From Mobula hypostoma (taxonomy: Eukaryota), in assembly GCF_963921235.1 (NCBI RefSeq), contig NC_086101.1, positions 109,802,001 to 109,866,000 of the forward strand: a DNA stretch of 64,000 bases, in the 5' to 3' direction. Below the pieces are notes generated by a model. That model was not told the origin of the DNA. It saw nothing but the letters and a program-made list of their open reading frames with translations, and ran no database searches. Below, in pieces: positions 57,555-61,274 of this stretch. The translations under genes and the position numbers were made by a program. Within the stretch, counting starts at the first letter, position 1. Each line of letters starts with the position of its first letter.

Positions 57555-60500
57555 TGTAACGGGTTTCTTCTTTCATGTTACTTGCTAAGGCTAATAAAAT
57601 GGCTTCTCTGTAATGTTAACTGATGAGGTAATGTTCTCTGTAGCAGCAAGTTTGGGTTATAATTAGTGATAATGGGACATGTATTCATTTGCTAAAAAAA
57701 TTGGGATAGATGTTATTCTTTCTTGTGTATCTGAAATCTGTTGTTTGCGTGGAACTTGGCGGAGAAGGCGTGAGGAGGATGAAGAGAGAAGACGTGGCTT
57801 GAGGAGACGGTTGCCGGACCCGCTGGGCCTGGGCTCGGGGCGGGAACCCAGAGGCTGACAACAAGCGGAGGAGGATCAGCGAAAGGGAATCCGTGAGCTC
57901 CAACGTTTGTGCACTGGACATGTTTATGAGATTACAGCATTGGCGCCTTTTATTTGTTTTCCTTGTCTTTTGTTTCTCTACTAACCCCATACTTAAATAT
58001 AAAATCTTAATCGTGTAAACGCACATCGTGGACTGAATGTTATTTCGGGTACTGATGTTACACAGGGGACACAACACACAGTATCCACCCAAACAGGAGT
58101 GCTAAAGTTTGGCCGGGTAGAGGGTGCCACCCCCGAGATCATGCCACTAGGCAAAGCGAGTCTTACAATGTGGGGTTACTTGTCCGGGATACGGATTTTT
58201 GTGGGGTGCTGTGTGTTCACCCTGTTTAAATCAGTGCTGGTGTGTCTCTGTGGGATTGTGATTAGACACGTGTGCCCCTGTGGGATTGGGGTGAGTAACG
58301 GGCTGAGTGGGGTGGATATTCGTACCTTAGATGGATTGTTATTTCGATTTTTGAGTATGGTTAAAGCTGATGGTGAATGTGAAATTGTAGAGCAAAAAGT
58401 TGATAAAATGGTGGGCTCAGACCTTGCTTTAGTGCGGGCCAGCGCTGACGTCACAGAGGTGGGATTGCCAGTGTCTATTGGTGCCCTGGGTGAGGCGGGG
58501 CCAGGGGCTGTCCATACTGTCAGGAGGGAGGGGGCAGAGGCGTACGAGACGTGGGCGGAACGGATCCCTCAGTTGTTAGATGACTGGCAGTGCTCGGCTG
58601 AGGAAGAGCGGCAGGGATTGGTTGAAAGTTTGAGTAGGTGGGCTGGTGATGGTGTTCGAACAGTCAGGGCCAATTACCCCATAGTGACAGCGGCCAGTTA
58701 TCTGAAAGCGGGGGAAAATGCGTTTGGTTCCACTGGAAGTAAAATGCAGCACCAGGGGGCTTTCCATACCTGTGTCAGGAGATTGGGGGAAAGTTTTCAG
58801 GGTATCTTCTCTGGCTAGGGGGGGCAGATAAATTGCTTGTGGTGCCAGGGGGATTAGCCCCTCCCTTAGTTGTTCAGCTGATCAGAGAGGTGTCGGTAAA
58901 CTTAATGGAGGTCCAGTGGGGGAACGGCTTGGGGTCTCTGGGGGAACACATTCCCAGCAAAGTACCAAGGAACTCCAGGAAGAAAATGACCCTATTTCTG
59001 AGGGCTTAGTGGGACCACGCTTCAGTGTGTTACGGATGGAGGGAAGCTATGCTAAGGCCTCCTCAACACTGGGGCGCAGGTCAAGTTGCTGTACAGTTCG
59101 TTTTACAACCAGTATTTGAAGTATTTACCCTTGACACTATTCTGGGCACTGGAAATTCGGCATATCAGTGGTGGGGATTATCCAGAAGATGATTATTGGT
59201 CAGCGAAACTGGAGCTCTCGGAGGCCAAGGTGTAGGTGTCTGAGGTTCAGGGATCGTTAGTGCTGATGTGTCTTGACACTGTTGAGACGGGCAGCGTTTC
59301 AATTTTGCAGGGAACCCACACCCCGCTGGTGAGGAGGTGCATGGGGGCCTGCCAGGAGGAGGTGGGTGAGAGCTGTCTGGGGGCATTATCTGTGCACCCA
59401 GTGTTTCGAGCTGCTTGTGAGGATGTGCATAGCAGCAATTGGGCCAGGTACCGAACTTAAGTAAGATCCGATGGTGGTACGGCACGGGTGAAGTAGCTGA
59501 GGGTGAGACCCTCTTAGTGGATGCTCCGACATACCACGCGGGGGGGGGGGGGGGGAGTTGACCACTGAAGACACCTCGGTGAGAGAGAGGTTGCGGCGAC
59601 TGGCCCCTGCAGACATGGAGGATGCAGGCAGCATGTGTGTGGGTTATAGGACCCTGAACAGGGGCACCGTCCCTGACCAGTATGTGGTCCCGAGGGTGGA
59701 AGACGCGCTGGTCTGTCTGAGAGGTGTGAAGTGGTTTAATGTGCGGGATCTGAGGAGTGGATGTTGCCAGATCCTGAGGCTGACAAGGAAAAGACGGCCG
59801 TTATAAGTCCCCTGGGATTCCTCCAATCCGAAAAGATGTTCCAGGGCATATCCGGAGCCCTTGCAACTTTCCAGCGGGGCATGAAGAAGACGGTGGAGGA
59901 TGCGGAATCATTTGGAGTTTTGGTGTATTTGGATGATCTCCTAGTATTTGGATCTGCCTCGGAAGAATATGAAGCGAGGCTGTTGCACGAGCGGCTGAGA
60001 ACTAAAGAGTTAAAGCTTTCGCTGGACACATGCCAGGTCTGGCGAAGGTCACAGCTCGTGAGTGACTGGCTCTACGGGATCAAGTTTGAAGTGAAGACGG
60101 AGAGACAGAATTCCCAGCAGAGACTGGAGAAAGTGATCCAGAACAAGTTGGAAGACTTGCAAGTTGGGGAAGACAAAGAAAGCTGTCTGACTAAGGCCAA
60201 CAGAAAATCGAGAGCCCAGAGAGGGAGGTTTGACTACACTTCCGAGGAGGTGAAGCAATTGAGGACAGATCTCAAAAGAGGGAAGTGGAAGCTTGAAGGG
60301 AACGTGAAGATGACCACTGACAGTTTAAATGAAGTGGAAAACCTGAAAGTTGACCTGGAAGAAGTCATTAGTTAGAAAAAGCTGGGGATAAGTTCAGTGA
60401 ACACTAAACTGGAGGCTGTACCAATCTTAACTGCTGCTTTTCAGGTCGGGGTGGAAGAAGCCGATGGAGTAACTGTGTCCCAGATTGAGATGGCCAAGAA

Positions 60501-61274
60501 GCATTAGTCAGAACTGCTGAGACTGTGGCGAGAGTTGGAGGAGTCCAAGAAGAAGCTGTCGTCTGGATTACAGGAGGCTGAAGCAGTCCAGGCCAAGTGC
60601 TCCAGCGTGGAGAGAACAAACCAGCAGCTACCGATCGAGGAAAAGGGGAAGAATACAGATTCGACGGATGGTGAGATGGAGGTGTGGTACATGCTGCCTT
60701 TCGCAAACTTCCCCTTGTTGGATGAAGAGGCTCCTGGCTCTTCTCCCGCTGAGCCAGGTGAGGTGGGGGGGAATAGCTGTGGGCAGCCTGGGTTACTGCA
60801 GGACCCTGAAGGAGAAACAGGGTGCCTGGACACAGGACAGGAGGCTCCGGGTTGTAGTGGGGGCATGAGTGAGAGATTGAGAGAGGATTTGGCAAGGAGA
60901 CCCGAGGTATCCCCAGTAGAGTCCGAGCCTGAAGGGTTTAGGTGAGGGGGTACGGAGGTCTCGGAAGATTAGGAAACTCCCAGATAAGTTGGCCTATGTA
61001 GTGCCTGGGGAACAGGGCATGAGGTCTACTGTTTGGGGAGCAATGTCACTGTTTGTACCTGGATTGGGTTTTTGTGTCTGCAGGAAGGGTTGATGAGTTA
61101 TTTAAAAGTCATGAGGACATGACTAAATTTGGTAGGGGGAGAGTGTTATTTCGGGGTACTGATGTTACACAGGGGACACAACATGCAGCACCCACCCAAA
61201 CAAGAGTGCTAAAGTTTGGCTGGGTAGTGGGCACCACCTCCGAGATCATGCCACTAGATGCAATGAGTCTTACA
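57555..61274 (+). mobile_element. Gypsy LTR retrotransposon 2 (same family), internally deleted
   Basis: 5' LTR 57555-58167; PBS-like TGGGGTTACTTGTCCGGGAT; PNMA-like gag [36 protein letters not shown] 61131-61142; partial 3' LTR 61143-61274; TSD CTAG/CTTG. Confidence 0.85.
60100..60640 (+). pseudogene. Captured myosin heavy-chain rod fragments (MYH16-like) inside Gypsy 2
   Basis: [114 protein letters not shown]. These match recalled sarcomeric MYH S2/LMM motifs. Confidence 0.85.

Follow-up and report, generated by a model that had tools for sequence, protein, structure and literature searches.

In retroviral oncogene transduction, spliced host coding sequence is joined in frame to gag-pol, and the resulting genome is defective and depends on a helper. 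According to Tan et al. 2016 (PMC5131818), LTR-mediated retrocopies in animals consist of partial, intron-free host mRNA lying between two parts of an LTR element; they carry short matches at the switch points, can move on as non-autonomous elements, and are mostly young and of low copy number (5 of 7 in zebrafish). Maize Bs1, as treated in the same paper (PMC5131818), holds host exons of three parental genes inside an LTR element, with identical switch points in all copies and secondary retroposition; it is present in 1–5 copies and is said to be functional.

The locus that we describe lies in the window, by which we mean the whole 64-kb stretch of Mobula hypostoma DNA that was analysed. It is very likely that intron-free rod exons of a host MYH16-like gene, in frame in a non-autonomous Gypsy element of at least 381 copies, were captured once via template switching by reverse transcriptase (RT). 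A preliminary description of this DNA, as a captured intronless MYH mRNA in a Gypsy element, is borne out: donor exon joints are crossed without introns, the switch points carry short matches, and a whole subfamily shares the joints. As in LTR retrocopies, element parts lie on both sides of host sequence that has lost its introns, with microsimilarity at the switch points and with neither poly(A) nor an own target duplication, and secondary retroposition is seen in shared switch points, LTR pairs and 4-bp duplications. Compared with the cases of Tan et al. 2016 (PMC5131818), the ray case likewise fits a double template switch, but here a single capture gave rise to a family of no fewer than 381 copies, which falls into many deletion lineages and is shared by several ray genera. 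Unlike Bs1 as presented in that text, the ray family goes back to a single donor and numbers hundreds of copies, and its protein is drifting. The comparison to oncogene transduction made in the preliminary description holds for the mechanism, since spliced host sequence is fused in frame in a defective element, and fails for the captured protein, which is not conserved; moreover, no env was seen in the ray element, the captured protein is unselected, spread was through the germ line, and the 5' joint misfits splicing. Our literature search found no LTR element with a captured myosin heavy chain in sharks or batoids. The mechanism, LTR template-switch retroposition, is a known one; what is new is the scale, the completeness of the record and an apparently headless ancient donor, and the nested in-frame deletions are unusual. 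Autonomous kin, integrase-less parent, original joint, donor and later deletions are all found within one genome, an unusually complete record of gene capture for a vertebrate. The features of the locus, and of a sister element in the window, are as follows.

50966–55139, + strand: element 1, a myosin-free, integrase-less sister of the parent type
57555–58167, + strand: 5' LTR (TG...CA), 613 bp; sister copies have full LTR pairs
58171–58190, + strand: primer-binding-site-like stretch, from the sequence
58525–58794, + strand: gag remnant with PNMA-type capsid domain (Pfam PF14893, E 5e-14)
58895–59700, + strand: protease and RT-start remnants, deleted and frameshifted, 82–90% to element 1
59815–60042, + strand: reverse transcriptase remnant (Pfam RVT_1, E 1e-5, below cut-off)
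60059–60100, + strand: RNase H remnant, deletion-joined to RT
60089–60113, + strand: myosin piece 1 (donor CDS 443–467)
60114–60442, + strand: myosin piece 2 (donor CDS 540–868), 285/329 identical, with stop at 60373–60375
60443–60537, + strand: 6-nt remnant and myosin piece 3 (donor CDS 1001–1089), piece 3 77/89 identical, with stop at 60505–60507
60538–60640, + strand: myosin piece 4 (donor CDS 1714–1827), after the 624-nt ELEE jump
60641–60945, + strand: element tail, with a few post-RNase H connection bases, the parent's integrase-deletion joint, and the post-integrase tail to the stop
61131–61143, + strand: polypurine tract, from the sequence
61144–61274, + strand: 3' LTR, reduced to 131 bp by a large internal deletion, 87.5% identical to its 5' counterpart

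The LTRs, primer-binding site, polypurine tract and gag-RT-RNase H order are those of a Ty3/Gypsy element. The four bases of its left flank, 57551–57554, agree with the right flank at 3 of 4 positions. The primer-binding-site-like stretch may resemble the end of tRNA-Pro; no tRNA gene was found in the 64-kb window. Integrase, which follows RNase H in autonomous kin, is missing from this non-autonomous element. The deletion joint between RT and RNase H is common to most lineage-B copies and to the Hypanus protein P0001. Element 1 is indeed free of the insert at the equivalent place, as had been noted previously, and its stretch at about 54229–54293 corresponds to what myosin replaced. Myosin-free relatives are of two kinds: some bear integrase (Pfam rve), and others lack it and have a fixed deletion joint, as element 1 does. 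The joint of element 1 recurs in 6 of 20 relatives fetched, so that the integrase-less parent type is itself a spreading family. Myosin copies have the same integrase-deletion joint directly after the insert; because myosin-free and myosin-bearing copies share this one joint, the parent was already integrase-less at capture. One myosin-bearing copy (L228:501-8004) immediately follows an integrase-bearing element that has the same orientation, and the two may have an LTR in common. Between the two Gypsy elements of the window there is a CR1-like LINE reverse-transcriptase stretch (55200–57000, with 384 open codons at 55320–56474), and an LTR fragment (57021–57226) comes after it.

The insert at 60089–60640 comprises 552 nt, or 184 codons of myosin, and is 87.3% identical to the joined exons of a gene that the host carries on contig C68. 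The earlier estimate of about 180 rod codons is in good agreement with this, whereas the three rod segments then recognized have become four pieces plus a 6-nt remnant (donor CDS 443–467, 540–868, 947–952, 1001–1089 and 1714–1827). As described before, the reading frame of the insert is continuous with the RNase H remnant upstream and with the element's 3' tail downstream; it is, however, interrupted in the window copy by two in-frame stops, at 60373–60375 and 60505–60507. Its translation matches the sarcomeric rod at two separate places in MYH7 (60100–60372 with residues 996–1078, E 2e-8; 60511–60660 with residues 1383–1424), and the insert is therefore more than a generic coiled coil. A Pfam search of the insert recognised no myosin domain, the middle piece searched alone against the PDB gave no match, and the ESM Atlas placed the insert in a myosin-tail cluster and nothing further. 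Exon junctions were mapped on the host gene, and the insert retains no intron: it crosses five donor exon joints, at introns of 19.4, 28.7 and 3.0 kb in piece 2, 2.7 kb in piece 3 and 24.2 kb in piece 4, and 78 kb in total are missing. Since spliced donor joints are crossed without introns, the insert came from RNA.

The donor was traced via a 'myosin-6-like' protein of Narcine bancroftii (P0231), obtained by a profile search of representative proteins, which spans the parts deleted in the element; a piece of P0231 missing from the element led to a single host locus, C68:14.48 Mb. The gene, at G000:C68:14,401,226-14,739,488 in the own genome, has 23 exons, all GT/AG, with at least 1,119 open codons, a whole coiled-coil rod and the MYH exon layout. 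A distance of about 0.56 Mb separates it from the cluster of fast myosins, and it has an ortholog in the electric ray (Narcine). Its 5' introns measure 19–79 kb, intron 2 being 44 kb, and its first exon is degenerate and IQ-like, also in Narcine (82% over 205 aligned columns). One Narcine isoform of this gene skips exon 3. The last four exons were spliced as predicted in contigs of 4 of 4 runs from 3 studies, the RNA nature of the runs being guessed. Contigs of two runs, also guessed to be RNA, reach 74–93 bases upstream of the first ATG, across an in-frame stop, and beyond the exon end, although assembled contigs cannot reveal a transcription start.

Other candidates were rejected. A head exon is present in 11 sarcomeric genes of the own genome, and among the 4 tested, host MYH16 was the best in 37 of 38 copies, being closer than the MYH7B-type, the MYH7-type and one fast myosin. 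Host MYH16, on contig C36, was itself rejected as donor, with 58–75% nucleotide identity by segment and 43–67% at third positions, near saturation. Thus the MYH16-like character that had been noted for the insert applies insofar as the donor is a paralog of MYH16, and not to MYH16 itself. Foreign donors (teleost, lamprey, tunicate) were dropped once the host gene on C68 was found.

The original 5' joint persists in the copies with the fewest deletions (L227–L229, 3 of the 10 that were extended), where the post-RNase H connection passes into donor CDS 235, the first base of donor exon 3. Parent and donor are alike at 10 of 11 bases at this joint, and 4 bases are common to both at the 3' return joint. 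The two switch points are only about 65 bases apart in the parent, and these bases were replaced by myosin; neither poly(A) nor an own target duplication was found in the joint sequences at the insert ends. Within the insert, the ELEE jump removes 624 nt at a place where 13 of 16 bases are alike (p 0.0003) and is present in nearly all copies. A search with donor exon 13, for copies retaining the 624 nt, returned only the donor and two host myosins; as exon 13 is in no copy, the ELEE jump either arose before the family spread or was part of the capture itself. Among five internal joints, three have significant repeats, with 13 of 16 bases alike found at two deletion joints (p 0.0003) and an 11-nt exact repeat at another (p 0.0003), and two are at chance level (p 0.12 and 0.25). 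In the window copy, the 11-nt repeat is at the right end of piece 1, where 72 nt were deleted in frame, and piece 4 terminates at the 4-nt match to the parent element. The remaining joints are later deletions, and this includes the left end of piece 1: the RNase H–myosin junction, which had been noted before, is present in the window copy as described but is secondary, not the capture point. The copies show a nested series of shared deletions, and their lineages lost most of the insert at different places. In-frame deletions are partly expected, given that 58–74% of the donor's short repeats are in frame.

From these joints we propose that element RNA and host donor mRNA would have been co-packaged in one particle, that RT would have jumped from element RNA to donor mRNA at the 10/11-base match and back at the 4-base match, that the chimera would then have spread in trans via integrase-bearing relatives, and that successive internal deletions would have shortened the insert in separate lineages. 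Template switching inside a particle is the part of this scheme that we hold with the greatest confidence, and mobilisation in trans is also strongly favoured, if by slightly less. There are three difficulties. The 3' match is just 4 bases, two of the five internal joints resemble chance, and the 5' joint falls at the first base of exon 3, where random switching seldom lands. The last of these is what would be expected if an element in the donor's 44-kb intron 2 had been read through and spliced onto exon 3, with one template switch restoring the 3' end, and the match to unspliced RNA is two bases longer than that to mRNA. Nevertheless, a GT is lacking at the joint in the parent, the closest one, paired with either tandem-site acceptor, gives a joint whose length differs from that of the copies, and the 10/11 match accounts for the joint without splicing; we therefore regard capture by read-through and splicing as quite unlikely. 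Still further from credible are capture at the DNA level or a retrocopy made by L1 or CR1 (the insert ends show neither intron sequence nor poly(A) nor a target duplication, and parent bases were replaced rather than pushed apart as by an insertion), a foreign, horizontally acquired myosin (initially suggested by the low identity to host MYH16, but a host donor at 79–93% exists), and an assembly chimera (the joints recur at hundreds of sites and are present in the assemblies of other species).

Junction copies were counted genome-wide, as the preliminary description had proposed, and the junctions proved to be subfamily-wide. When the best 40 of 1,037 candidates were scored, 42 DNA matches to the insert were obtained in the own genome. 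A 25-mer over the splice joint had at least 381 genome matches and a 31-mer over the ELEE joint had 69 occurrences with up to 2 mismatches, the control giving 0 in each case; the ELEE 31-mer detects 22 of 38 collected copies, and such counts are thus lower bounds. A set of 78 copies, chosen for likeness to the window copy (38 from the DNA search and 40 more from ELEE 31-mer matches), is 79–93% identical to the donor, with a mean of 86%. Intact versions were also sought, and the insert is unbroken in 16 of the 78. The LTR pairs of sister copies diverge by 0.05–0.12 (K2P), those of 15 lineage-B copies by 0.066–0.121, and 4-bp target duplications flank several sister copies. The same joints occur in named proteins of Mobula hypostoma, M. 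birostris, Hypanus sabinus and Hemitrygon akajei, and the window's RT–RNase H–myosin joints occur in both dasyatids (Hypanus, Hemitrygon); one Hypanus model is continuous from gag through myosin over 729 aa. Protein searches returned no comparable fusion from other groups, which is weak evidence. On the simplest reading the capture and several deletions predate the mobulid–dasyatid split, horizontal transfer being the alternative, and we consider it probable that the capture itself came before the two lines parted.

Identity to the donor is even over codon positions 1, 2 and 3 (87.8, 88.2 and 87.6%, lineage B), and 170 of the 227 variants found in at least 4 copies are missense; accordingly, the captured protein is not conserved, and selection of the oncogene kind was not seen in the codon-position and variant analyses. 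The silent share is higher among shared variants, but because it is likewise higher in non-coding frames, this rise is mutational. Most likely, the insert is filler with drifting amino acids. Stops in the myosin frame make up 1 of 227 variants in at least 4 copies compared to 31 of 619 single-copy variants (p 0.0008); the single shared stop falls on a CpG, and its occurrences are dispersed across the tree. Corresponding values for the other two frames are 10/205 against 34/599 and 5/209 against 28/612, so that the deficit is absent in frame +1 and weak in +2. The initial set of 38 copies had given only a weak stop signal (p 0.04). The RT remnant had no stop deficit (3/120 against 12/337, p 0.77), and that of the element tail was not significant (1/90 against 15/319, p 0.21). 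Length changes in at least 3 copies are in frame in nine cases and frame-shifting in five; the shared frameshifts need 3–6 changes on the tree for 3–7 carriers and, being scattered, are recurrent rather than inherited.

We lean, by a modest degree, to the view that spreading lineages had to keep the insert readable to the element's own stop; readable filler could let element RNA escape early-stop decay. That the insert is instead wholly neutral cargo, with in-frame joints from codon-phase repeats and a stop deficit due to sampling, is a lesser but substantial possibility, which bears on this last step only and not on the capture. It accords with the RT remnant, with the proportion of repeats in frame and with the picking of copies by likeness to the window copy, and less well with the strength of the deficit in the myosin frame, its absence or weakness in the other two, and shared frameshifts that are not inherited. 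Improbable, in our judgment, is a function of the coiled coil for the element, for example as an oligomerising Gag-Pol extension that aids entry to helper particles. The insert is in frame in every lineage seen, stops are avoided, and unbroken inserts and the 729-aa Hypanus model exist; yet codon-position identity is flat, inherited variants are mostly missense, the rise in silent share extends to non-coding frames, and most of the insert was lost differently by lineage. With hundreds of copies of host-derived filler, it can be cleanly tested whether an open frame is a requirement for the spread of defective LTR elements.

Invertebrate muscle has headless rod proteins, paramyosin and the Drosophila myosin rod protein. 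Like these, the ray donor is a full rod, apparently motor-less, with a short N-terminus of its own; unlike them, it is a separate vertebrate gene of the MYH16 line, and its thick-filament role is putative. A profile of 14 myosin heads gave nothing under E 2 in the 201 kb upstream of the donor's first ATG, while the same profile gave 22 matches on the host MYH16 region as a control; genome-wide head searches, one with a stricter first pass, placed none near the donor. From one assembly and the contigs, it is likely that the donor encodes a motor-less rod protein, which would make it a sarcomeric myosin gene without a motor, not described before in rays. MYH16 is the masticatory myosin (PMC11050549). 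The donor has the rod exon layout of MYH16 and is 62–63% identical to vertebrate MYH16 rods, but it is on another contig than host MYH16, its motor exons were not found, and it lies outside the jawed-vertebrate crown. In a tree of 1,114 rod columns, it fell within the MYH16-plus-lamprey clade (100/100) and outside jawed-vertebrate MYH16 (100/100); a grouping with cartilaginous-fish MYH16 was rejected (p-AU 6e-40), although the donor branch is long and the test is subject to the same pull. With the host's own MYH16 on C36, the donor is not an MYH16 ortholog, and by its placement in the tree it appears to be an older, apparently headless paralog. Callorhinchus has two MYH16 genes (P0087, P0104), neither orthologous to the donor, and Liparis P0243 was rejected on analysis as an ortholog. 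A 245-aa 'putative MYH16' of Bufo gargarizans (P0313, XP_044154341.1) falls beside the donor in a tree of 214 columns (SH-aLRT 88), on a long branch; the paralog may thus survive in amphibians. The literature searched held no description of an MYH16 paralog in elasmobranchs, and for headless myosin in vertebrates, titles and opening abstract lines revealed no such gene.

Taken jointly, these results suggest a picture that we offer tentatively, as falling a little short of probable: rays would keep an ancient, expressed, motor-less MYH16 paralog, a vertebrate counterpart of the invertebrate headless rods, maybe as old as jawed vertebrates and maybe present in amphibians, and the element family that took its mRNA would have been selected across rays for translatability, the amino acids being irrelevant.

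Ray annotations contain spurious gene models, named 'myosin' and 'MYH16', that stem from these copies. RefSeq models overlying copies give only a hint of LTR-driven co-transcription. Ray models named myosin, MYH16, SDHAF3, GST theta-2 and TMEM192 are partly this element (P0238, P0005, P0012, P0132, P0224, P0228, P0230, P0234 and P0235). In two of them, P0238 and P0005, host-like exons are fused in frame to the myosin insert, by exonisation or by model error.
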